Sequence record: PQ850624.1
Strand: one strand, 5' to 3'
Source: Escherichia phage RuthEpting_Bas85
DNA length: 44,889 nt
Shown here: positions 11,749 through 40,017 of the stretch, piece after piece
Layout of the letters: every line of letters starts with the position of its first letter
Numbering within the stretch: the stretch's first letter is position 1
Notes under the pieces: generated by a model
The model's database searches: none
What the model saw: only the letters and a program-made list of their open reading frames with translations
Told to the model about the DNA's origin: nothing
Made by a program: the position numbers and the translations under genes

Positions 11749-12018
11749 GCGGGACGGATCGGGACGTCCCGCTTTGTCCCGTTTTGTCCCGCCACCTGCA
11801 AAACTGCATACCTACTCACTTTCATTGCATAAACTAAAAGCGGGACGAGCGGGACGTCCCGATCCGTCCCGCCCCCTAAATGTGCATACCTATTCAGATT
11901 TCGTGCATAAAATAAGCGGGACAGAAAGCGGGACAAACATGGGGCGGGACAAAGCGGGACAGCACCCCGTCCCCGTCAGTGCTGCCGCGGGTTTTAGCCG
12001 ATCGGGACAAGCGGGACA
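11749..12018. repeat. iteron array A (GCGGGACA / TGTCCCGC, both orientations)
   Basis: At least 5 exact GCGGGACA copies (11916, 11928, 11944, 11954, 12011) plus GGGAC-core variants; two identical 12-bp palindromes CGGGACGTCCCG (11760-11771, 11850-11861); two tandem ~80-bp units carrying TGCATA...GCATAAA. Confidence 0.8.
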
Positions 12019-12023
12019 AACCC

Positions 12024-12072
12024 CAGTCTTTCAGACTAGACGGGGGTCAATGGCCCCCCTCGTCTGAGACTG
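12024..12072 (+). other. long imperfect hairpin A (conserved copy at 39750-39799)
   Basis: CAGTCTTTCAGACTAGACGGGGG-tcaatg-GCCCCCCTCGTCTGAGACTG; arms identical in the second copy, loop differs. Confidence 0.6.
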
Positions 12073-12140
12073 AATAAGGTTTGTTTGAAATTCGCTGATA
12101 CAATGTCAATCGGCAACTGCATAAAAAAGGGGACTGCATA

Positions 12141-16950: not shown

Positions 16951-17558
16951 CCACATTTAAATTGTACGGCGTCTTAGGACGTCGTTTTGGTAAAGTGCAT
17001 AAGCTGGACTGCTTCACACCTGGCGAGGGTATCACCGGCCTATGCGTGAAGTTGCCAGGCTTACAGGACTTTCTAATGTCGGCCCACCTGGAAAACATGA
17101 TGTTCAAGGTGCGCAAGGGTAATCACACAATGACCGGCTACGACGAGTTGGGTGAGTTCCACGGCGACCGCGTAGTTACCATCGCGCCGGTTATGACTGG
17201 TGCTAAAAGCGGACTTGGACAATTGCTGGCTGGCGTAGCTATCGTGGTGGCGTCGTTCTACACTGGCGGGCTTGCCGCTGCCGCTTTCGGGGCTTCCGCT
17301 GCGACCGCCGCCGCTATCGGAACGGCGACGTTTTCGTTCGGTATGTCGCTTGCGCTGGGCGGCGCTATGCAATTGCTGTCACCGCAACCGAAAGGATTGC
17401 AGACACGGCAGGACGTGGATAACAAGGCGTCGTATGCGTTCGGCGGGCCGGTAAACACGACCGCGCAAGGCACAGCACTTGGTGTATTATGGGGAGAGCG
17501 TGAGATCGGCGGCGCTATTATTTCAGCCGGAATTGTAACCGAGGATTTGAACGAATGA
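16941..17558 (+). CDS. tail assembly protein (gpI-like)
   Basis: 205 aa with Gly/Ala-rich hydrophobic C-terminal half; position between K-like and J-like genes. Confidence 0.7.
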   Translation: MAMTTFKLYGVLGRRFGKVHKLDCFTPGEGITGLCVKLPGLQDFLMSAHLENMMFKVRKGNHTMTGYDELGEFHGDRVVTIAPVMTGAKSGLGQLLAGVAIVVASFYTGGLAAAAFGASAATAAAIGTATFSFGMSLALGGAMQLLSPQPKGLQTRQDVDNKASYAFGGPVNTTAQGTALGVLWGEREIGGAIISAGIVTEDLNE

Positions 17559-20500
17559 CGATTATCTACGACGTCACGGGCCATAAAGGCGGCGGTGGCA
17601 AACAGCACACCCCACAGGAGACGCCTGATAGCCTGCATTCGCTGGCTAAAATCCGCATCTTGCTCGCACTGGGCGAGGGCGAATTTGAAGGCATTCCCGA
17701 CCCTAACGAATTACGGCAGCGTGTATACCTGGACGGCACACCGATCCAGAACGCCGACCTGTCGGATAACTTCCCCGGCGCGCGCGTGGAGTTCCGCCCC
17801 GGCACGCAGCACCAGGATGTGATTCACGGTTTTTCAGCGGTGGAAAGCGAGCAAACAGTAGGCGTAAAACTGGAACAGGGACAGCCGTGGGTCCGCCAGA
17901 TTTCGGACACCAGTCTGGACGCGGTGCGTATTCGAATCGGTATTCCGGCCCTGTACACTAACGAAGATAATGGCGACCTGGTGGGCGGGCGCATCGACTA
18001 TAAAATCGTTGTGTATACCGATAACGCCGATCCGCGCGAGTTTACATTCGCTGCCGTTGGTAAAACAATGTCGCTGTACGAGCGGGACCACCGCATCGAA
18101 TTACCGCCGAACGTTAACACCGGCTGGCGCGTGGAGGTGCACCGCACAACGACAGACTCCACATCGGCGAAAGTGGTCAACGATATCCAGGTACAATCCA
18201 TTACTGAGATTATCGACGCCCGCCTGCGTTACCCGCTAACCGCGCTGTTGTTCGTGGAGTTCGATGCTAAGGCGTTCCAGAACATCCCGCGTGTGTCCAT
18301 CAAGTGCAAAGGCCGCAAAGTGCTGATCCCGAACAACTACGACCCCGTGAACCATACCTATTCGGGCGATTGGGATGGCACATTTAAACGCGCCTGGACG
18401 GATAACCCGGCATGGCACTGGTACGATATTTGTATTACTGAGCGCTTCGGCCTCGGTCGTCGTGTCAAGCCACAAATGCTAAACCGTTACGCGCTCTACC
18501 AGATTGCGCAGCGCTGCGATCAGATGGTCAGTGACGGCAACGGCGGACAGGAAATCCGATTTAAGAATGATATGTACATTCAGTCGCAGACAGACGCCTG
18601 GACCGTGCTGAAGGATTTAGCGGCAATCTTTGCCGGTATGACTTGGTGGGGCAACCAGATGTTGAATATCGTCAGCGACCAGCCGGTCGCAGCGGTGTCG
18701 CACACTATCACCAACGCCTCGGTTATTGATGGTAGATTCGACTACGCATCAGGAAGCCAGAAAACTCGGTATTCCACGTTCTCGGTAGCCTACGGCAACC
18801 CGAAAAACCATTACGAGGACGCCATCGCAACGGGCCAGCGTGTCGAACTGGTGCGCCGCCATAAGATTAACCGCCTTGATATCACGGCGATCGGCTGTAC
18901 GCGAGAATCTGAAGCGCAACGCCGCGGGCACTGGGCGCTAATCTCCAACCAGCTTGACCAGCAAGTTAGCTTTAAGGTTGGCATGGAGGGGCTATTCTTT
19001 ATTCCGGGGAGCGTAGTTGCGATCGCGGATACTAACATTTCTGGCGGCTTCGAGACACGCGGCGGTCGCCTGTTGTCTGACCCCGGCACGCGCACCGTGC
19101 TGAACACAGACAGCGAAATCACGTTCCGCCCTGGTGATAAATTCCTGGTGCGCACCGATAGCGGTAATGTGGAGACTCGCGAGATTGCCAGCGTCAACGG
19201 CAACCAGGTCACGCTAAAAACCGCACTGGACGCCGACCCGATTCCTGATCAGCCGTTTTGCGTTGATGGCGATGATATCCAGTTGCAGAAGTTCCGCATC
19301 ACCGACCTGGAATATGACGACGCTACCAGCACTTTTTCGGTGCGCGGGATTGAGTACAACGATAGCAAATATGATGCCGTTGATAATGGCGCGCGTCTTG
19401 ATCCGGGTATATTCACGCAAGTGCCAGACGGCGTAATGAAGGGACCGGAATCCGTGACCATCACCACGTCGCAGATTTCATCACAAGGCCAGCTAATCAC
19501 TAACGTGGATATTGTATTCCCGCCGGTGAAGGATGCCGTTGTGTACGAAATCCAGTGGCGACGTACCAGCTTGCAGAATCTGGAAGTACAGTGGGGCAAC
19601 GACTGGGTGAACATCCCACGCACGGCATCGAACGGGGCGCACATCCCGAACGTGTTTTCTGGTAACTACCAGGCACGCGTCCGCGCGATCGGTATGGGCG
19701 AGATTTCATCCCCGTGGGTGTCATCCGCCATCACGCCGGTGGAGGGTCGTCTTGGTGGGCTTAACGCGCCTATCATCACCAACGCGATTTCGGGCCTTCA
19801 CCAAATTTTGTGGAAGTGGAACCACAACAACGCCGCGACGGATATTTCGTATACCGAGCTTGAAGTGCGCAAGCTGGGAGAAACGGAATGGAAATTCCTA
19901 ACCAACGTCCCATATCCGGGGTCGGACTATGCACAAACGTCGCTGGAGTTCGGGATCTATCAGCAGTTGCGCGCACGCGTAGCGGATAAAATCGGCAACC
20001 TGTCAGACTGGTCAGATCCGTTCGACGGGCAGGTGAGTGACAAAGTTGACGAGTACATGCAGGGGCTTGATGACGAGTTCTTGACTTCCGAGGACGGTAA
20101 ACACTTCCAGGAAGCAATCGACACCATTCCGCAAGGCATCTATGAGTCAATGCTTACGGACGCCCAGCAGTTATTCAACGCCCGCGCCGAGTATAAAGGG
20201 ATTTATGCGGAAATTACGGTGGCGTATAACGTGGCGGCGGATGCTCACGAAGCTGTAGCGCAACTGGAGACGTTGATCGGCACGCGCCTTGACGATGCGG
20301 AAGCGTCAATCCACACGTTGCAGACCGCGCAAAGCACGCATGAGCAAGCATTCGCCCAGTACCAACAAACTGTTGCCGCTAAGTTCGGGGAGCAGGAAGC
20401 TGCCATCCAGCAGGTACAAACGGCAACGGCAGACGTAGCTGGCGCGCTGGCGGAGTATAAGACCCAGGTCGCGGCACAGTTCGGACAGCAGTCCGCAGCT

Positions 20501-21001
20501 ATCGAGCAGAAGATGACGTCTTCGTTTAACCATGCTGGCGGTAGCGCCACCTACAGCCTAAAAGCTGGCGTGACGTATAACGGGACTTACTATGATGCCG
20601 GTATGCAGCTTTCAGTTGTGGCGGAAGGTGGCGCGGTTAAATCCCGCATCGCGTTCAAGGCGGACCAGTTCTACATCATGCACCCGTCAAATGGGTCGCT
20701 TTCGTCCGCGTTCATCGTTGACGGCGGGCAGGTGTATATCGACACGGCACGCATCAAGAACGCGTCCATTAACTTCGCGCAGATCACGGACACGCTGCAA
20801 TCCAATAACTGGAATCCGGGTAACAGCGGCTGGCGTATCGCGAAGGATGGCGGGGCAGAGTTCAACAACGTTACGGTACGCGGCAACCTGTACGCAAATA
20901 CGGGTAACTTCGGATTCTCCGGCGGGTCAGTGACTATTGACGCAACGGGCGTCAACGTGCCATTACCTGGAGGGGGCAGGGTGAAAGTCGGAACGTGGTA
21001 A
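17555..21001 (+). CDS. central tail fibre / host specificity protein (gpJ-like)
   Basis: 1148 aa; largest tail gene, follows I-like gene; ends at a strong terminator. Confidence 0.9.
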   Translation: MTIIYDVTGHKGGGGKQHTPQETPDSLHSLAKIRILLALGEGEFEGIPDPNELRQRVYLDGTPIQNADLSDNFPGARVEFRPGTQHQDVIHGFSAVESEQTVGVKLEQGQPWVRQISDTSLDAVRIRIGIPALYTNEDNGDLVGGRIDYKIVVYTDNADPREFTFAAVGKTMSLYERDHRIELPPNVNTGWRVEVHRTTTDSTSAKVVNDIQVQSITEIIDARLRYPLTALLFVEFDAKAFQNIPRVSIKCKGRKVLIPNNYDPVNHTYSGDWDGTFKRAWTDNPAWHWYDICITERFGLGRRVKPQMLNRYALYQIAQRCDQMVSDGNGGQEIRFKNDMYIQSQTDAWTVLKDLAAIFAGMTWWGNQMLNIVSDQPVAAVSHTITNASVIDGRFDYASGSQKTRYSTFSVAYGNPKNHYEDAIATGQRVELVRRHKINRLDITAIGCTRESEAQRRGHWALISNQLDQQVSFKVGMEGLFFIPGSVVAIADTNISGGFETRGGRLLSDPGTRTVLNTDSEITFRPGDKFLVRTDSGNVETREIASVNGNQVTLKTALDADPIPDQPFCVDGDDIQLQKFRITDLEYDDATSTFSVRGIEYNDSKYDAVDNGARLDPGIFTQVPDGVMKGPESVTITTSQISSQGQLITNVDIVFPPVKDAVVYEIQWRRTSLQNLEVQWGNDWVNIPRTASNGAHIPNVFSGNYQARVRAIGMGEISSPWVSSAITPVEGRLGGLNAPIITNAISGLHQILWKWNHNNAATDISYTELEVRKLGETEWKFLTNVPYPGSDYAQTSLEFGIYQQLRARVADKIGNLSDWSDPFDGQVSDKVDEYMQGLDDEFLTSEDGKHFQEAIDTIPQGIYESMLTDAQQLFNARAEYKGIYAEITVAYNVAADAHEAVAQLETLIGTRLDDAEASIHTLQTAQSTHEQAFAQYQQTVAAKFGEQEAAIQQVQTATADVAGALAEYKTQVAAQFGQQSAAIEQKMTSSFNHAGGSATYSLKAGVTYNGTYYDAGMQLSVVAEGGAVKSRIAFKADQFYIMHPSNGSLSSAFIVDGGQVYIDTARIKNASINFAQITDTLQSNNWNPGNSGWRIAKDGGAEFNNVTVRGNLYANTGNFGFSGGSVTIDATGVNVPLPGGGRVKVGTW

Positions 21002-21008
21002 ATGCGAA

Positions 21009-21030
21009 GGGGCCATCTGGCCCCTTTTTT
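21009..21030. terminator. bidirectional rho-independent terminator
   Basis: GGGGCC-atct-GGCCCC followed by TTTTTT; between convergent J-like gene and minus-strand gene. Confidence 0.75.
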
Positions 21031-21994
21031 AATAGATGTTAGGGATGACTAATAGCGGGGTGGGTACGGCAATATTTTTGCCCGGCATTTGGAATTGCTG
21101 CCGTGAGTAGTTGCCAATAACGCGGTTTTTAGCGATGCGCACATTATTACCCGCCATTCGTATCCCGTTCATGCGCACATGGTTATAGCCTCCGTTGTTC
21201 TCAATGAGCGCACCGGTATATGAAAGCTGGATCAGACTATTACCGATGTGCTGGTCGCCGCCACCGATATTAATCGTTCGGTCGTAGACAAACGGCTTGT
21301 TTACCGTCGAGAACGTGACCTGCCCCTGGTTGTTAGTCATGGTGATACCGGTCCCCGGTGAGGGCGGCGTATTGTTGAATATGACCAGGTCCATATCAAC
21401 GGCAGCGCCTACGTCGTCAATCCCGCCATAGGACGCATTACGGACAATGATACTTCCGCCATCGAAGCCAACCGATACGTTGCCGTCGTCCCAGCGCGCG
21501 AACGGGACACCGCCGACTGGTAGCGGCATACTTCCGTTTACATGCACGCGCTGCGCATATCGGCACGTCATTAGCCGTGATACGTTGGATATGGCGGTGA
21601 AGTCCGTTGAGTTAGCCACCAGTAAGCCCGCATTGCGTGACCCCACCGGCAGCACTTCCATAATCACCCCGCCCCATGTTGGAAGCCCGCTGTATGCGTT
21701 ATAGGCGTCCTCACCGCGCAAGGTGATTCCGCCATCCCCGTTACGTTGTATCGACGTCACATAAAACGGGTCTGGCAAGACCAGGGTCTGGTCGAATACC
21801 TCAATCACTTCAACCGGATTAGTTAGGGCAACGACCAGTTCGGACCCTGGTGTCAGCGGTGTGTTAATGGACAGCGTCTTGTCAGACTGACAGCGCTGAT
21901 TAAAGGTAGTGCAAAACGACGGAGCGCGAAGGCCCGCGGTTATCTCCATGACAGGTCTACCGTCGTTGTAGTCGATTAATATTCCGGCACCCAT
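21029..21994 (-). CDS. receptor-binding / tail tip protein (putative)
   Basis: ATG at 21994 with RBS GGGAG (ORF track extends to GTG 22003); ~321 aa, Gly/Asn/Val/Ile-rich beta-type composition, no signal peptide; co-oriented with the lipoprotein gene upstream. Function by context only. Confidence 0.4.
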   Translation of the reverse strand: MGAGILIDYNDGRPVMEITAGLRAPSFCTTFNQRCQSDKTLSINTPLTPGSELVVALTNPVEVIEVFDQTLVLPDPFYVTSIQRNGDGGITLRGEDAYNAYSGLPTWGGVIMEVLPVGSRNAGLLVANSTDFTAISNVSRLMTCRYAQRVHVNGSMPLPVGGVPFARWDDGNVSVGFDGGSIIVRNASYGGIDDVGAAVDMDLVIFNNTPPSPGTGITMTNNQGQVTFSTVNKPFVYDRTINIGGGDQHIGNSLIQLSYTGALIENNGGYNHVRMNGIRMAGNNVRIAKNRVIGNYSRQQFQMPGKNIAVPTPLLVIPNIY

Positions 21995-21996
21995 TA

Positions 21997-22218
21997 TTAC
22001 CACTCCCGTGATTTAACTGATACAGTACCGGAAAAATTGCCGTCGCTATCGGCAGACAGGCCAGTGAAGCGCATGTCAACATCTCCGGCAGGGACTTTTT
22101 GCCCGTCAACGTAACGCAACATGCAGCTTCCGTAAGCCACCGTAATGCAATCACCGTTGTTGCGTTCTACAGCACAACCGGACAAAAGGACCGCACAAAT
22201 CATAATTAAAGTTTTCAT
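21997..22218 (-). CDS. Cor/Llp-like superinfection-exclusion lipoprotein (putative)
   Basis: Start at ATG 22218 (RBS GGAGA); 73 aa; signal peptide MKTLIMICAVLLSGC with lipobox LSGC; small Cys-containing mature part; adjacent to tail fibre genes. Confidence 0.55.
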   Translation of the reverse strand: MKTLIMICAVLLSGCAVERNNGDCITVAYGSCMLRYVDGQKVPAGDVDMRFTGLSADSDGNFSGTVSVKSREW

Positions 22219-22269: not shown

Positions 22270-22298
22270 GAATGCAACCAATTTATGAGGATTCAGCT

Positions 22299-24077
22299 AT
22301 GGCAGCGGGTACACTATCCGTAACGAATAACAGCAAGGCGGTTGTGGGCGTCGGCACAACGCTTACCGCGCTGAAGGCTGGCGACTTCCTGTCGCTGGTA
22401 GTGGGGCAAGTACCTTACACTGTCGCTATTGCATCCGTAGAAAGCGACACCGCGCTTACGCTGGTGCTGCCGTTCGATGGCCCAACGGCAACCGGCCTCG
22501 CATGGGATAGCGTGGCGCGCGATACCATGTCCCTTGCAACGATGGGTGTAACCGTCCAGGCGCAGAAAGCGCTCCGTATGCTTATCGCGGACGAAAACAA
22601 CTGGCGTGCAATCTTCGGCGACGCTGAGGAGATCACTGTCACGCTCCCGAACGGGCAAGTAATGCAGGGTATGTCATGGGGCTATCTGTCGCAATTGCTC
22701 AAGCAAGTTGACCCCGTAGAGATGCGCAACCTGCAACAACAAGCCGCCGCATCGGAAGCCGCCGCGCAGGGATACCGGAACGAGGCAGAAGGCTTCAAGA
22801 CTGATACGCAGGCGATCCACGACGCCACCGATCAGATTAAGACTGATACGCAGGCGATCCACGACGCCACCAACACCATCAAGACGCAGACCAACCAGAT
22901 TAAGACTGATACGCAGGCCATCAAGGACGAGACTGACCAGATTAAGACGGATACTGGCGCTATTCGCGATCAGGCCAATACAGCGAAGACGGACGCGCAA
23001 GCCGCCCGTGATGCCGCGCGGGGATACCGGAACGAGGCCGAACAATTCAAGAATGAGATCGACCCGTCGAAATTGCTGGCAAAGGCCAGCAACCTTAGCG
23101 ACGTTGCAGACGTTGCAGAAGCGCGCGACAACTTAGGTATCGGGCCGACGGATACACTTAATCTTGGTGGCCTGGTAACGTCCGGCGGTATCTCCGCGGG
23201 TCGAAACACGTGGGACGGGTCAAACTGGGGGAGCCAAGGGGTTATTGCATCATTAGCTATCCTAGCACCAGACGGAAACTCAACCCCCGGCTTATATGTG
23301 CGTAACAGCAACGGCAGCGGCGGATATGCGTCTGAATGGCTGTATTATGAGAACACGAACGCCTGGGCGACGAACGCGCGAGTTGTCGGCTATCAATTCC
23401 GTTCCCCGAAGGGGACTATGGGATATCATCAGTTGTGGTCTGAAGCTGCGGTACGAGTGGACCCGTACATCGGGCAGCTTAACGCGGAAAACTATCAGTC
23501 GTTAATCGCGGGGGCTGCTATGACGCAAGGCCACGGATTTGCGGGCGGTGTTTCGTTCGGGATTATGACAACCGGCAGTAACAACTGGCCTCGGGCGCAG
23601 ATCTCGATCGGCACACAGGACCGTGACGCCGCGGGGGATATGGGGCTTCAGATGCATTTCCGCTTCGATGATCAGGGGCGGATCTCTTACAGCGGACCAC
23701 AAGGCACGGGGTCATTCCAGCAAGTGCCCGCATCTGACCGCAACCTGAAGCATGATATTGCCGATGATGCCAGCAGCACCGCCTACGACAATATCAAGGC
23801 TATGCGATTCCGTACGTTCGTATTCAACAACGACGAGCAAGAACGGCAGCGCCGCGGTGTTATCGCGCAAGAACTGGAAGAAATCGACCCGCTGTATGTG
23901 AAACACCGAGAGTATAACAACCATGAGTTAAACGGGCCATTGATGCACCAGCTTGAACTGGACACAACGCCGCTGTTACTCGACACTATGCGGGCGTTGC
24001 AGGATACGATTAAGCAGGTGGAGGAGTTGAAGGCCGAGATCGCAGCTATGAAACAAGTGGAGGAGTTGAAGAAATAA
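22299..24077 (+). CDS. side tail fibre with C-terminal intramolecular chaperone domain
   Basis: Start at ATG 22299 (RBS GAGGA); N-terminal fibre domain, heptad-repeat array, C-terminal region (SDRNLKHDIADD...RFRTFVFNNDEQERQRRGVIAQELEEIDPLYV) typical of self-cleaving chaperone domains of T5 pb1/K1F-type fibres. Confidence 0.8.
   Translation: MAAGTLSVTNNSKAVVGVGTTLTALKAGDFLSLVVGQVPYTVAIASVESDTALTLVLPFDGPTATGLAWDSVARDTMSLATMGVTVQAQKALRMLIADENNWRAIFGDAEEITVTLPNGQVMQGMSWGYLSQLLKQVDPVEMRNLQQQAAASEAAAQGYRNEAEGFKTDTQAIHDATDQIKTDTQAIHDATNTIKTQTNQIKTDTQAIKDETDQIKTDTGAIRDQANTAKTDAQAARDAARGYRNEAEQFKNEIDPSKLLAKASNLSDVADVAEARDNLGIGPTDTLNLGGLVTSGGISAGRNTWDGSNWGSQGVIASLAILAPDGNSTPGLYVRNSNGSGGYASEWLYYENTNAWATNARVVGYQFRSPKGTMGYHQLWSEAAVRVDPYIGQLNAENYQSLIAGAAMTQGHGFAGGVSFGIMTTGSNNWPRAQISIGTQDRDAAGDMGLQMHFRFDDQGRISYSGPQGTGSFQQVPASDRNLKHDIADDASSTAYDNIKAMRFRTFVFNNDEQERQRRGVIAQELEEIDPLYVKHREYNNHELNGPLMHQLELDTTPLLLDTMRALQDTIKQVEELKAEIAAMKQVEELKK
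22794..23021 (+). repeat. in-frame heptad/42-bp tandem repeat array in fibre gene
   Basis: Protein repeats KTDTQAI-HDATDQI with Ile every 7th residue over ~75 aa; nucleotide unit AAGACTGATACGCAGGCGATCCACGACGCCACC repeated; flanked by 19-bp direct repeats GGGATACCGGAACGAGGC at 22769 and 23021. Confidence 0.7.
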
Positions 24078-33138: not shown

Positions 33139-33930
33139 TTAACGGCGGCGACGTTTACGTGGTGCTTCGTCTTCGTCGTCGTCGTCGTCCTCATCTTCGT
33201 CATCGCGGGACTTGCGACGCTTGCGAGGTTTTTCGTCTTCCTCGTCTTCGTCATCGTCATCACGACGCTTGGATTTCTTGGACTTGCGCGGCTTATCATC
33301 TTCGTCATCGTCATCACGACGTTTGGACTTCTTAGCCTTGCGCGGTGCTTCATCTTCGTCATCGTCGCCCAGGTCGTCATCGGAACAAGAAGACCCGCCG
33401 CCACCGAAGGAATCACCATCACCACGGAATCGAAGACCCATCAAACCCGCACCTAGACCTTTGCCGTTGGTGTTGTTCCACGCCCAAATATCCAGGGACA
33501 CGTTGCAATAACAACCGGAATAGATTTCCTGGCCTTCGATCTCGTCGCCGTCGATAGTCAGACCCTGTTCGGTCTGCTTCTCGCCCAGTGACGTTTGGAT
33601 GTTAGGCTGTTTGAACGATTTGGCGTTGATGTACAGCATGCCTTCAAACTCTTCGGTTACTTCGTCGCGCTCATCACCGTCGCGAACTGCGCATTCCTTA
33701 GAATCCTGGGCGTAGTGGCGGTCCATCCACTTATCGGCGTTCTTCTCGGATTTCAGCTTGTCGGTGAGCACTGCGCGCGCTGCCGCTTCCACTTTGTCCA
33801 CCTGCGGATCTTCTTTATCAAGAAGAATCACGGCACGGTATGCCGGTTTTTGTCCATCCTGTTTAGGGGTATCACGTTCCCAAATTTTCAGGAAGCATAC
33901 GCGCACGTTTTTCAGGTTGACTTTAGCCAT
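33139..33930 (-). CDS. ssDNA-binding protein, DUF2815-like, with alternating acidic/basic repeat tail
   Basis: N-terminus MAKVNLKNVRVCFLKIWE...KPAYRAVILL resembles DUF2815 phage SSBs; C-terminal ~85 aa are repeats of DDDEDE-APRK-KKSKRR blocks. Confidence 0.6.
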   Translation of the reverse strand: MAKVNLKNVRVCFLKIWERDTPKQDGQKPAYRAVILLDKEDPQVDKVEAAARAVLTDKLKSEKNADKWMDRHYAQDSKECAVRDGDERDEVTEEFEGMLYINAKSFKQPNIQTSLGEKQTEQGLTIDGDEIEGQEIYSGCYCNVSLDIWAWNNTNGKGLGAGLMGLRFRGDGDSFGGGGSSCSDDDLGDDDEDEAPRKAKKSKRRDDDDEDDKPRKSKKSKRRDDDDEDEEDEKPRKRRKSRDDEDEDDDDDEDEAPRKRRRR

Positions 33931-36142: not shown

Positions 36143-36661
36143 TTAATCTTCTAATTCGAAATACGTTTCTACTATTTCTTTTAAATCTTTATGGAAGTCT
36201 TCGACGTCGTCATCTTCCAGCTTGGCGACGGATTTAATTTCGAACGCTTCCAGCAGATCATCAAATTCGTCGTTTGCGTCGTCGTCATCGCCGCCTGCGA
36301 TAATCGCGGCATACTGCTTGATTTCGTCGCGCATCTCTTTCAGAGGATCGGCTTCTTTCTTGCCTTTACCTTTCGCCGGTGCTTTTTTAGACTTCGCAGG
36401 TGCTTCTTCCTCGTCCGCGTCGTCGTCATCTTCTACGGCTTCTTTCTTAGCCTTGCCCTTTGCAGGCGCTTTTTTGGACTTCGCCGGTGCTTCATCTTCA
36501 GCGTCGTCATCTTCGACTACTTCTTCTTTTGCCTTGCTCTTAGCCGGGGCTTTCTTCGCTTCCTGTTTACCAACGGCAGCGCCAGCAGTTTCGTAATGCT
36601 TAGCGATGGTTTCCAGTGCTACTACGCCGCGAGTGATCAGGTTTACGATTTGCTCAAACAT
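36143..36661 (-). CDS. highly charged repeat protein (first gene of leftward early operon)
   Basis: 172 aa; ATG 36661 with RBS GGAGA; two ~29-aa tandem repeats (EDDDAEDEAPAKSKKAPAKGKAKKEAV) and an acidic C-terminal half. Confidence 0.5.
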   Translation of the reverse strand: MFEQIVNLITRGVVALETIAKHYETAGAAVGKQEAKKAPAKSKAKEEVVEDDDAEDEAPAKSKKAPAKGKAKKEAVEDDDDADEEEAPAKSKKAPAKGKGKKEADPLKEMRDEIKQYAAIIAGGDDDDANDEFDDLLEAFEIKSVAKLEDDDVEDFHKDLKEIVETYFELED

Positions 36662-39535: not shown

Positions 39536-39626
39536 ATTTTGCGCGCATTGGTTGCCAAATTGAGTGTTTTTAGCTGGTCGCATTGGTTGCCGTGTAGTGT
39601 AAATATAGTGAATAGTTATGCAGTTT

Positions 39627-39745
39627 TATTGCATAAAATAAGCGGGACAAAAAGCGGGACAGACAGGGGGCGGGACAAAGCGGGACAGCACCCCTTGTCC
39701 CGCCCGGATGGCGCGGCTTTCAGAGGAGCGGGACAGGCGGGACAA
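39627..39745. repeat. iteron array B (second copy)
   Basis: TTGCATAAAAT followed by six exact GCGGGACA copies (39642, 39654, 39670, 39680, 39728, 39737) and one inverted TGTCCCGC; ~85% identical to 11895-12018. Confidence 0.8.
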
Positions 39746-39749
39746 ACCC

Positions 39750-39799
39750 CAGTCTTTCAGACTAGACGGGGGTCAGTCGGCCCCCCTCGTCTGAGACTG
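39750..39799 (+). other. long imperfect hairpin B
   Basis: CAGTCTTTCAGACTAGACGGGGG-tcagtcg-GCCCCCCTCGTCTGAGACTG; arms identical to hairpin A, loop one nt longer. Confidence 0.6.
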
Positions 39800-40017
39800 C
39801 ATAAAATCCGGGATTGCATAATGTACGGCAGCATGACGTGAATTGCGGTCGTCGACGAACTAGGCAACCAATGCGAGTTGTATTATGGGTGGTGAAAAAT
39901 GCAGTTTGCAGTTACAGCAGATAGCGATCAACTTTTTCATACGCATGATTAATATTGGTTGCATTCAGCCTGGCACCCTGCTAGATTGGTTGCACCCCAA
40001 CGAGAGGACCAAACAAA

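Follow-up and report, generated by a model that had tools for sequence, protein, structure and literature searches.

The lateral tail fibre gene and its domains

The 44,889-nucleotide stretch of DNA that we analysed, hereafter the window, is the complete genome of the Dhillonvirus RuthEpting_Bas85; in a whole-stretch comparison it was 98.5% identical to, and colinear with, the genome of Escherichia phage Haito_Bas83. Its plus strand carries at 22299..24077 the gene for a lateral (side) tail fibre of 592 amino acids plus stop, as identified from the program-made list of open reading frames (ORFs), the PHROGs family phrog_1980 and the Haito_Bas83 annotation. The whole fibre protein matched phrog_1980, 'tail fiber protein', with E = 3e-137, and the gene shares 96.6% nucleotide identity with Bas83_0030, rising to 100% across the heptad array described below. 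The ORF in the list opens at ATG 22272 and spans 601 amino acids. The true start is nevertheless likely to be ATG 22299 (MAAGT...), judging from three features of the sequences: the Haito_Bas83 fibre is annotated from the equivalent of 22299, a stop codon precedes MAAGT in the fibre genes of relatives, and GAGGA lies 7 nt upstream of ATG 22299.

The ORF list and a domain search placed three genes before the fibre gene, encoding a J-like tip protein (17555-21001) and, on the minus strand, a DUF6453 protein (21029-22003) and a Cor-like phage lipoprotein (21997-22281). The order J-like protein, DUF6453, lipoprotein, fibre is the same in Haito_Bas83, in phages NJ01 and CHD5UKE2 and in three metagenome genomes, L030, L031 and L032. 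The marks of a Dhillonvirus lateral fibre are thus all present, namely a conserved N-terminal anchor, a position downstream of the J-like/lipoprotein locus and a genome of about 44-45 kb. The published account gives the O16 O-antigen as the target of the Bas83-85 lateral fibres, and describes the Bas85 fibre as one in which 'elongated N-terminal coiled coils' lead into a T5-like tip that includes a chaperone domain (PMC11990801).

Identity to relatives, PHROGs matches and an AlphaFold2 (AF2) model together delimit an N-terminal anchor domain at amino acids 1-137 (22299..22709, plus strand). Its identity to the query was 87-94% in the N-domains of 14 metagenome loci, on contigs of Dhillonvirus size, and identity to the window was 56-91% among six aligned sequences. 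Residues 1-144 alone matched phrog_1980 with E = 3e-70, and the AF2 pLDDT was about 76-86 at residues 1-70. Dhillonvirus fibres in general conserve this domain, which is presumably their point of attachment to the tail.

The shaft follows at 22710..23066 on the plus strand, and was delimited by heptad columns, the AF2 helix and comparison with relatives. Column analysis revealed 17 uninterrupted heptads (DPVEMRN ... QFKNEIDP), a register of 119 amino acids without a stutter. Ile, Phe or Tyr recurs in one column, with Thr or Ala four residues on, Lys, Arg or His immediately after the Ile/Phe/Tyr and Asp, Glu, Gln or Ala before the Thr/Ala, so that the core positions are Ile/Phe/Tyr and Thr/Ala. 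The AF2 monomer was a single helix from amino acid 139 to 253, with block-mean pLDDT of 71-96 over residues 151-250. The segment therefore displays the canonical traits of a coiled coil: unbroken heptads with apolar or small a and d positions and, by prediction, a continuous alpha-helix. The sequence-only reading of this DNA had described a heptad array of about 75 residues; an array does lie where it was placed, but it is longer, with 77 residues between the flanking motifs and the full register extending well beyond them. When searched alone, the coil segment belonged to no PHROGs or Pfam family and gave only sub-threshold matches to Laminin_II and COG6_N, as expected of low-complexity helices. 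We conclude that the array encodes an alpha-helical coiled-coil shaft between the tail anchor and the distal domain. The shaft is presumably trimeric, as suggested by the family of the C-terminal chaperone and by the AF-multimer description of the Bas85 fibre in PMC11990801.

The distal, receptor-binding part (23067..23732, plus strand) opens with an NLSDVADxxxARxNLG motif that matches repeats of the short tail fibre gp92 (PDB 9zd7). Differences from Haito_Bas83 are concentrated towards this end of the gene: 61 of the 62 mismatches fall at gene positions 800-1806, and the distal half is 6-7% diverged. A Foldseek comparison of the AF2 model, a monomer, with the PDB returned nothing significant (best E = 0.18). 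Because the model is monomeric and poor in the distal half, with pLDDT below 50, we leave the tip without a fold assignment. The protein ends in an intramolecular chaperone domain of the Peptidase_S74 family (23733..24074, plus strand), delimited by Pfam and phmmer. The Pfam match to PF13884 covered residues 488-543 of the 601-amino-acid ORF (E = 6e-12; 46.1 bits against a cut-off of 22), and phmmer matched the C-terminus to PDB 8hqz_d, 'L-shaped tail fiber assembly' (E = 3e-11). The domain opens at nt 23733 with SDRNLK, a Ser-Asp-x-x-x-Lys motif, making this a putative site of autoproteolytic release of the chaperone.

Repeats in the shaft-coding DNA

Two exact copies of an 18-nt sequence, GGGATACCGGAACGAGGC, lie on the plus strand at 22769..22786 and 23021..23038, exactly 252 nt or 12 heptads apart. 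They form the cores of a pair of 44-nt imperfect repeats (22761-22804 and 23013-23056) that are 86% identical, and both encode GYRNEAE, at amino acids 167 and 251 of the 601-amino-acid ORF. The earlier reading had the positions and the encoded peptide of these flanking repeats right and their length too great by one nucleotide, at 19. About 0.015 exact 18-mer repeat pairs would be expected by chance in the whole window, and repeated 10-mers in the coil region number 52, where shuffled sequences average 0.135. The repeats in the coil region are not due to chance.

Between the flanking copies, Tandem Repeats Finder, a repeat search and the list of exact repeats all pointed to two 42-nt tandem units at 22797..22880 (plus strand), each encoding the 14 amino acids KTDTQAIHDAT(D/N)(Q/T)I and sharing a 33-nt exact repeat (22797-22829 = 22839-22871). 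A 23-nt exact repeat, CAGATTAAGACTGATACGCAGGC, spans 22833..22918 on the same strand, with copies at 22833 and 22896 and a spacing of 63 nt, or 3 heptads. The array had been described as built of tandem repeats of about 42 bp. A 42-nt period was indeed found by Tandem Repeats Finder, although with only 2.2 copies (22795-22885, 88% matches); the remainder is diverged, and the base period of the array is 21 nt. The repeat search recovered five in-register copies spaced by 42, 42, 21 and 42 nt, with only 63-72% identity. All exact direct repeats of at least 11 nt in the shaft DNA are spaced by multiples of 21 nt; those of 33, 23, 18, 17, 13 and 11 nt have spacings of 42, 63, 252, 105, 42 and 105 nt, respectively.

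Codon usage separates old from recent repetition. Over all heptad pairs, identical codons were observed in 71 of 146 cases, barely above the 63.3 expected from codon usage, which means that the array is for the most part old and diverged, and that much of its periodicity comes from constraint on the protein. This result rejects a recent tandem origin for the array as a whole, although not for the 33-nt and 23-nt repeats, whose identity at synonymous sites indicates recent duplication or gene conversion. These two internal repeats are also better substrates for slippage than the flanking 18-nt pair, which is a weak substrate for homologous recombination.

Variation of shaft length among relatives

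We compared the array with its counterparts in 15 viral contigs, 14 metagenome loci, 49 clustered proteins and 10 phage records, and with alignment spans from a phage database. The 42 distinct arrays of relatives come in 10 lengths from 35 to 140 amino acids, that is, 5 to 20 heptads, and every one of them (42/42) is a multiple of 7 amino acids. Several coil lengths occur within each distal-linker class. Gapped alignments from the phage database differed only by -63, -42, -21, +21, +42 or +63 nt. Repeat number is thus not identical across relatives, the comparison that had been proposed as a check. The claim that the repeats permit gain or loss of whole heptads in frame is borne out by these lengths and by near-identical pairs that differ by 63 nt.

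The closest comparisons are the most instructive. The cultured isolates CHD5UKE2 and 101114BS4 are 99.5% identical, with 20 mismatches in 3.7 kb, and CHD5UKE2 contains a perfect tandem duplication of 63 nt that 101114BS4 lacks. L030, L031 and L032, which are 99.6-99.8% identical, carry three, two and one copies of a 63-nt unit, respectively, although this series was obtained from short-read metagenome assemblies, in which the number of tandem repeats can be wrong. Aligned with the relative L039, phage mckay has a single 252-nt gap, lacking exactly the stretch between the two G[FY]R[ND]EAE motifs; the crossover lies inside the motif, in the GCCGAAG common to both motif copies, and the gap is just the product that recombination between the flanking motifs would be expected to leave. 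Each of these length differences may reflect either a deletion or an insertion. In-frame copy-number differences among close relatives are one trait that the array has in common with variable-number tandem repeats or contingency-type loci.

RuthEpting_Bas85 and Haito_Bas83, at 98.5% genome identity, do not differ at all within the array, which speaks against a hypermutable locus or frequent change on that timescale. Moreover, 17 heptads is the modal length, found in 21 of the 42 distinct arrays and in 33/40 among the phage-database matches listed. This dominance points to stabilising selection rather than free variation.

We consider it likely that the array is the coiled-coil shaft of a Dhillonvirus lateral fibre whose length varies by whole heptads through DNA repeats of 21-nt periodicity. 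Replication slippage or unequal recombination between the shaft repeats would add or remove whole heptads, since all repeat spacings are multiples of 21 nt. Such a change would preserve both the reading frame and the coiled-coil register, and each heptad gained or lost would alter the shaft by about 1 nm. A single recombination event joining the proximal and distal GYRNEAE-coding copies would excise 12 heptads, reducing the shaft to a stub of five. The route may be slippage or annealing by phage proteins; the Haito_Bas83 annotation includes a Gp2.5-like ssDNA-binding/annealing protein and an exonuclease that would be candidates for the latter. The rate in RuthEpting_Bas85 itself may be low, to go by the identical arrays, and a change in shaft length might bear on host recognition.

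Possible module exchange, known parallels and significance

The strongest competing explanation holds that G[YF]R[ND][EQ]AE motifs are mainly conserved linkers for module exchange, hot spots of homologous recombination at which whole arrays or distal domains are swapped between fibre genes, with length change as a by-product. Homology to other Dhillonvirus fibres ends at a small set of fixed positions: the VDP junction (query 155-164), NLQQQA (186), the start (214-218) and end (232-241) of motif 1, and motif 2 (482-489). In another phage-database search the alignments ended at query 775, or nt 23046. Since homology to many relatives stops just past the distal 18-nt copy, that copy is also a module junction. 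At least three unrelated linker/distal families follow motif 2, beginning with QFKNEIDPSKLL, EWAQSVNADNLLTKSGNL and GFANSADASQK, and array 'flavours' KTDTQAI, TAKTGAETARDQAN and TAKTAAETAKSQAV alternate between the same anchors. One relative, SP1, is 94.8% identical overall and yet has another linker type, and the KTDTQAI array with its GYRNEAEQFKN linker is also found behind an unrelated N-terminus (P0048 and P0049), with database matches including Drexlerviridae-type phages.

Such exchange, however, leaves unexplained both the perfect unit duplications on near-identical backgrounds and the whole-heptad rule that every length obeys. In addition, the motif is short (7 amino acids), and its two copies differ in DNA in most relatives, for example GGATTTCGCAATGAG versus GGGTATCGGGATGAA in L039. 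As the principal account, module exchange therefore seems to us a reasonable possibility somewhat short of an even chance, and one that largely complements heptad-wise length variation: the same conserved GYRNEAE motifs at which the shaft could recombine also serve as junctions joining different distal modules.

It is improbable that the array is a static structural repeat, its periodicity a requirement of the coiled coil and its DNA repeats without a role in variation in this phage. The identity of the array in RuthEpting_Bas85 and Haito_Bas83, the near-expected sharing of codons among heptads and the strong mode at 17 heptads would all fit such an origin. They are countered by the ten lengths among relatives, with recent perfect duplications in cultured isolates, and by the synonymous-site identity of the 33-nt and 23-nt exact repeats in this very array.

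Still less credible is that the relatives' length differences are artefacts, produced when sequencing or assembly collapsed or expanded tandem repeats. The most clear-cut series of copy numbers, L030-L032, does come from MEGAHIT-style metagenome contigs (k119_/k141_ names). Like differences were nonetheless seen in cultured isolates that had been sequenced independently (CHD5UKE2, 101114BS4, mckay, EE09, NJ01, SECphi18 and Shigella phage 1b), units of at most 63 nt and arrays below 400 nt are within ordinary read lengths, and the L031 copies differ in sequence from those of L030, so that L031 is no simple collapse of L030. Given that cultured isolates display the same kinds of differences, we reject this explanation. 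Programmed diversification, in which a dedicated system such as a diversity-generating retroelement, invertase/shufflon or site-specific recombinase would target the flanking repeats, has as its sole lead the position of these repeats on either side of a variable part of a receptor-binding fibre, and is effectively refuted. Among the genes annotated in Haito_Bas83, whose genome is 98.5% identical, there is no reverse transcriptase, invertase or integrase, and so nothing that points to programmed variation. The repeats are direct rather than inverted, a repeat search found no significant inverted repeats flanking the array, and relatives vary in copy number, not by the adenine-specific substitutions typical of retroelements.

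The BASEL papers name Haito_Bas83 gp30, RuthEpting_Bas85 Gp29 and JakobBernoulli Bas07 Gp36 as lateral tail fibres, whose described role is O-antigen binding (O16 for Bas83-85), by which the phage crosses the layer before its central fibre binds a porin (PMC11990801, PMC8594841). Gene and layout are the same as here: anchor, elongated coiled coil, T5-like tip and C-terminal chaperone. The parts of the two papers covered here do not describe heptad-quantised coil length or flanking motif repeats (PMC11990801, PMC8594841). A literature search on tail-fibre heptads, coiled coils and recombination likewise found no paper on this variation in Dhillonvirus within the collection it covered, which is no proof of novelty.

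The T5-like L-shaped fibre (T5 pb1; DT57C LtfA, PDB 8hqz) has a homologous Peptidase_S74 chaperone (the E = 3e-11 match), and both it and the Bas85 fibre are O-antigen-binding side fibres of siphophages. The N-proximal Ala/Gln/Thr-rich region of LtfA begins with SEGFRDSAE, which is related to the motif of our fibre. LtfA differs in its N-terminal anchor and in size (1076 versus 592 amino acids), and its shaft gave no significant match to that of Bas85 (-8.9 bits).

Other systems offer parallels as well. The size of streptococcal M protein reportedly varies as repeats within its gene recombine (Hollingshead, Fischetti and Scott, 1987). M proteins resemble the present case in being fibrous coiled-coil surface proteins with whole-heptad repeat blocks and in-frame size variants; they are, however, dimeric, bacterial, under immune selection and not homologous to the fibre, and their variation within populations was shown experimentally, whereas that of the fibre is known from comparison among relatives. 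Distal fibres of T-even phages are said to exchange modules at the His boxes of gp37 and glycine islands of gp38 (Tetart, Krisch and colleagues, 1996-1998), and in the fibres of Streptococcus thermophilus phages the host-range region is reportedly flanked by collagen-like repeats (Duplessis and Moineau, 2001). There, as here, short conserved motifs are recombination points that swap or resize receptor-binding modules, but the motifs, folds and phage groups are different, and the segment studied here is a variable-length spacer rather than an adhesin. The adenovirus fibre shaft and the YadA/BadA stalks are trimeric, with a reach set by the number of shaft repeats, which varies among serotypes or strains; their repeats differ in fold (a triple beta-spiral in adenovirus, other coiled-coil variants in YadA/BadA), and there is no homology to the fibre.

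It is tempting to go further and view the coil as an evolvable molecular ruler, by which a phage population keeps a standing pool of fibres in steps of about 1 nm, from 0 to about 21 nm, and selection matches their reach to the thickness of the O-antigen or capsule, with the Gp2.5-like protein and the exonuclease driving slippage at a useful frequency. We regard this as speculative and rather unlikely; if it were true, shaft length would be a second axis of host range, independent of receptor specificity.

In conclusion, the array is a thoroughly documented case of length variation driven by repeats, of a kind already known; neither the system nor the mechanism is new. Natural fibres range from no coil to 20 heptads, always in whole heptads and with several distal domains, and, to judge from these natural variants, they show that the shaft can act as a dispensable, freely resizable spacer. 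Because side fibres decide the passage of these common coliphages through the O-antigen layer, this is relevant to host-range prediction and phage engineering. The G[YF]R[ND][EQ]AE motifs mark natural splice points and provide a design rule for chimeric or length-tuned fibres. Furthermore, these phages, among them the experimentally characterised BASEL phages Bas83-85, offer a simple natural system in which to ask whether the reach of a fibre affects adsorption.

The lateral tail fibre and its coiled-coil shaft

The nearest relative, Haito_Bas83 (PQ850604, 44,876 nt), aligned with the 44,889-nt window end to end and colinearly from base 1 at 98.5% identity, which identifies the window as the whole genome of a small E. 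coli siphophage of the Dhillonvirus group. The array-bearing gene is that of the lateral tail fibre. Its mechanical reading frame (22272..24077, plus strand, 601 aa) starts 27 nt further upstream than the gene as we adopted it (22299..24077, 592 aa, from the second Met). The ATG at 22299 is likely the true start, because the Haito_Bas83 annotation begins the fibre there, several relatives carry a stop codon in the stretch equivalent to 22272-22298, and GAGGA lies 7 nt 5' of this ATG. The gene for a J-like tip protein (17555..21001) lies upstream, and between the two are a DUF6453 protein and a Cor-like lipoprotein (opposite strand). This order, from J-like protein to fibre, recurred in all relatives examined, including the metagenomic genomes L030-L032, Haito_Bas83, NJ01 and CHD5UKE2.

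When the protein was set out in seven-residue rows from DPVEM, the heptad register of the array (22710-23066) ran unbroken over 17 heptads (119 residues), well beyond the ~75 residues for which the sequence-only reading had claimed a strict pattern. One column reads L, S, Y, F, eight I, A, A, Y, F, and the column four residues past it M, A, A, A, eight T, A, A, A, A, I; that following I/F/Y is basic (K/R/H), and that before T/A mostly acidic or polar (D/E/Q, some Ala). Such a pattern is the canonical 3-4 one of a coiled coil. AlphaFold2, run on the monomer with a 22-sequence alignment, modelled one continuous helix over aa 139-253 (block-mean pLDDT up to 96), with a moderately good N-terminal domain and a poor distal half. 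As an alpha-helix rises ~0.148 nm per residue, 119 residues compute to a shaft of ~17-18 nm, roughly 1 nm per heptad. At the C-terminal end of the fibre stands an intramolecular chaperone of the Peptidase_S74 family, which scored 46.1 bits where the cut-off is 22; the DT57C L-shaped fibre protein has a homologous C-terminus (PDB 8hqz, E = 3e-11). According to the BASEL completion paper (PMC11990801), Bas83-85 have lateral fibres that recognise the O16 O-antigen. Pattern, predicted helix, chaperone and this report together establish the array as the fibre shaft, which we infer to be trimeric.

Two further matches concern the flanking domains. Fibre aa 1-72 (22299-22514) weakly matched PDB 23gd_B, 'Distal tail protein gp20' (E = 8e-4), a hint that the anchor and a baseplate hub protein have a small beta domain in common. 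The motif of the post-coil linker NLSDVADVAEARDNLGIG (23085-23140) is present five times in tandem in the short tail fibre gp92 (PDB 9zd7, E = 1.7e-5); this type of linker motif is a connector element common to many fibres.

Shaft length among relatives

We gathered 15 viral contigs, 14 metagenome loci, 49 clustered proteins and 10 phage records (including mckay), and counted array length between two conserved landmarks, starting at the D of DPVE(M/L) and ending at the P/A of the F-K-N-x-I-D-P-type linker. The sequence-only reading had proposed a comparison of repeat number among relatives, and it revealed ten lengths in 42 distinct arrays (35, 77, 84, 91, 98, 105, 112, 119, 133 and 140 aa), all of them multiples of seven. 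Half of the distinct arrays (21/42) have the modal 17 heptads, the length found in the window, Haito_Bas83, SP1, Bas84, Gluttony and many others; mckay and PNS1 have 5, SECphi18 14, Shigella phage 1b 15, EE09 16, NJ01 19 and CHD5UKE2 20. Phage-database alignments across the array were offset from the window by only -63, -42, -21, +21, +42 or +63 nt, and of the 40 records listed when the database ranking was sampled in even steps, 33 share the window's length. Each distal-linker class includes several lengths. The strong 17-heptad mode suggests stabilising selection.

Gain or loss of whole heptads in frame, as had been predicted, was supported by close relatives. Between vB_EcoS-CHD5UKE2 and vB_EcoS-101114BS4 there are 20 mismatches in 3,706 aligned positions and a single perfect 63-nt tandem duplication within the array. 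L030, L031 and L032, short-read assemblies to which we gave less weight than to isolates, contain a 63-nt unit three times, twice and once, respectively, and are 99.6-99.8% identical over 5.2-5.4 kb; copies 1 and 2 in L030 are one base apart. Finally, the alignment of mckay (MN850629) with the related locus L039 has one gap, of 252 nt. Left of the junction mckay agrees with the first motif copy of L039, GGATTTCGCAATGAG, and right of it with what follows the second copy, GCCGAAGACTTCAAAAACGCG; the crossover is within the shared GCCGAAG. Thus, mckay has the structure predicted for a product of recombination between the flanking repeats, an insertion in the opposite direction being possible. These length changes appear to be recent and to have arisen within the gene.

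Some fibres have no coil at all, and the shaft is thus dispensable. The N-domain of jat and of the relative proteins P0017-P0020 is joined to what follows at VDP|SKFLAK, and that of P0021 at RNL|LTKSGNL, both junctions falling at short shared residues. Severely truncated fibres also occur in relatives: P0014 (Teewinot, 246 aa), P0015 (Maverick, 171 aa) and P0016 (266 aa) consist of the N-terminal anchor, with or without one GFRDQAE motif, joined straight to the chaperone domain or a short helix. Since they have no receptor-binding part, their phages may lack fibres or rely on a second subunit. E. coli-type Dhillonvirus fibres were also found under unlikely host labels (L037, Acinetobacter phage NJ01; H151, Campylobacter phage A144; 'Sodalis' records), which may reflect contamination or mislabelling.

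The repeat lattice and the mode of length change

The array and its flanking repeats are as the sequence-only reading described them, small corrections aside. The flanking string, given there as 19 bp, is exact over 18 nt (22769-22786 and 23021-23038, spacing 252 nt); both copies do encode GYRNEAE at the places named, and they are nested in a 44-nt repeat of 86% identity. Exact 18-mer pairs are expected by chance at ~0.015 in the whole window. Tandem Repeats Finder confirmed the proposed 42-nt period at 22795-22885 (88% matches), but for only 2.2 copies; a repeat search found five in-register copies, spaced 42, 42, 21 and 42 nt, at only 63-72% identity. Between heptad pairs, identical codons numbered 71 of 146, barely above the 63.3 expected from codon usage, so the greater part of the array is old and diverged. 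Two exact repeats make up its recent portion, one of 33 nt (22797/22839) and one of 23 nt (22833/22896). All exact repeats of at least 11 nt in 22700-23080 are spaced by multiples of 21 nt (42, 63, 252, 105, 42 and 105). Such a 21-nt lattice in the DNA would enforce length steps of whole heptads.

The fibre genes of the window and Haito_Bas83 differ at 62 positions, 61 of them in the distal half, which is ~6-7% diverged against a genome average of 1.5%. Their arrays are identical, so that over the time in which the genomes diverged by 1.5% the locus was not hypervariable. Programmed diversification of the array is unsupported, because none of the genes annotated in the near-identical Haito_Bas83 genome is a reverse transcriptase, invertase or integrase. 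That annotation does include an exonuclease and a Gp2.5-like protein for ssDNA binding and annealing; these could aid annealing at short repeats.

Other repeats lie elsewhere in the window. A direct repeat of ~196 nt (11882-12077 and 39608-39804, 86% identity, copies 27.7 kb apart) is a possible substrate for large deletion or rearrangement; the two small hypothetical ORFs that it overlaps correspond to Bas83_0021 and Bas83_0056 and are probably paralogues. Tandem arrays occupy 33245-33366 (54 nt, 2.3 copies), in the minus-strand gene corresponding to the Gp2.5-like protein, and 36352-36553 (81 nt, 2.4 copies), around the equivalent of hypothetical gene Bas83_0052.

Module junctions and shaft function

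Homology of the window to other Dhillonvirus fibres stops at a small number of fixed points, namely the VDP junction, NLQQQA, either end of motif 1 (the proximal GYRNEAE-coding copy) and motif 2 (the distal one). Motif 2 is followed by no fewer than three unrelated families of linker and distal part, three array 'flavours' fill one slot between anchors, and KTDTQAI heptads with the GYRNEAEQFKN linker also stand behind an unrelated N-terminus (P0048, P0049), whose database matches include Drexlerviridae-type phages. Thus, the motifs appear to act as module junctions too, a role that complements length variation rather than competing with it.

The fibre gene was already known, and its coiled coil had been described in a sister phage. 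Streptococcal M proteins are a well-known case of coiled-coil fibres that vary in size through repeats while keeping register; T-even fibres are known for module exchange via motifs, and adenovirus fibres and trimeric autotransporter adhesins for variable shaft-repeat number. In the literature searched we found no description of heptad-quantised shaft variation in Dhillonvirus. Documented here for this genus are the ten whole-heptad lengths, a DNA repeat lattice that would enforce them, the recent duplications and the putative motif-to-motif deletion. It seems rather unlikely to us that shaft length is matched to how thick the O-antigen or capsule layer of the host is; the BASEL phages are a suitable system in which to test this idea.
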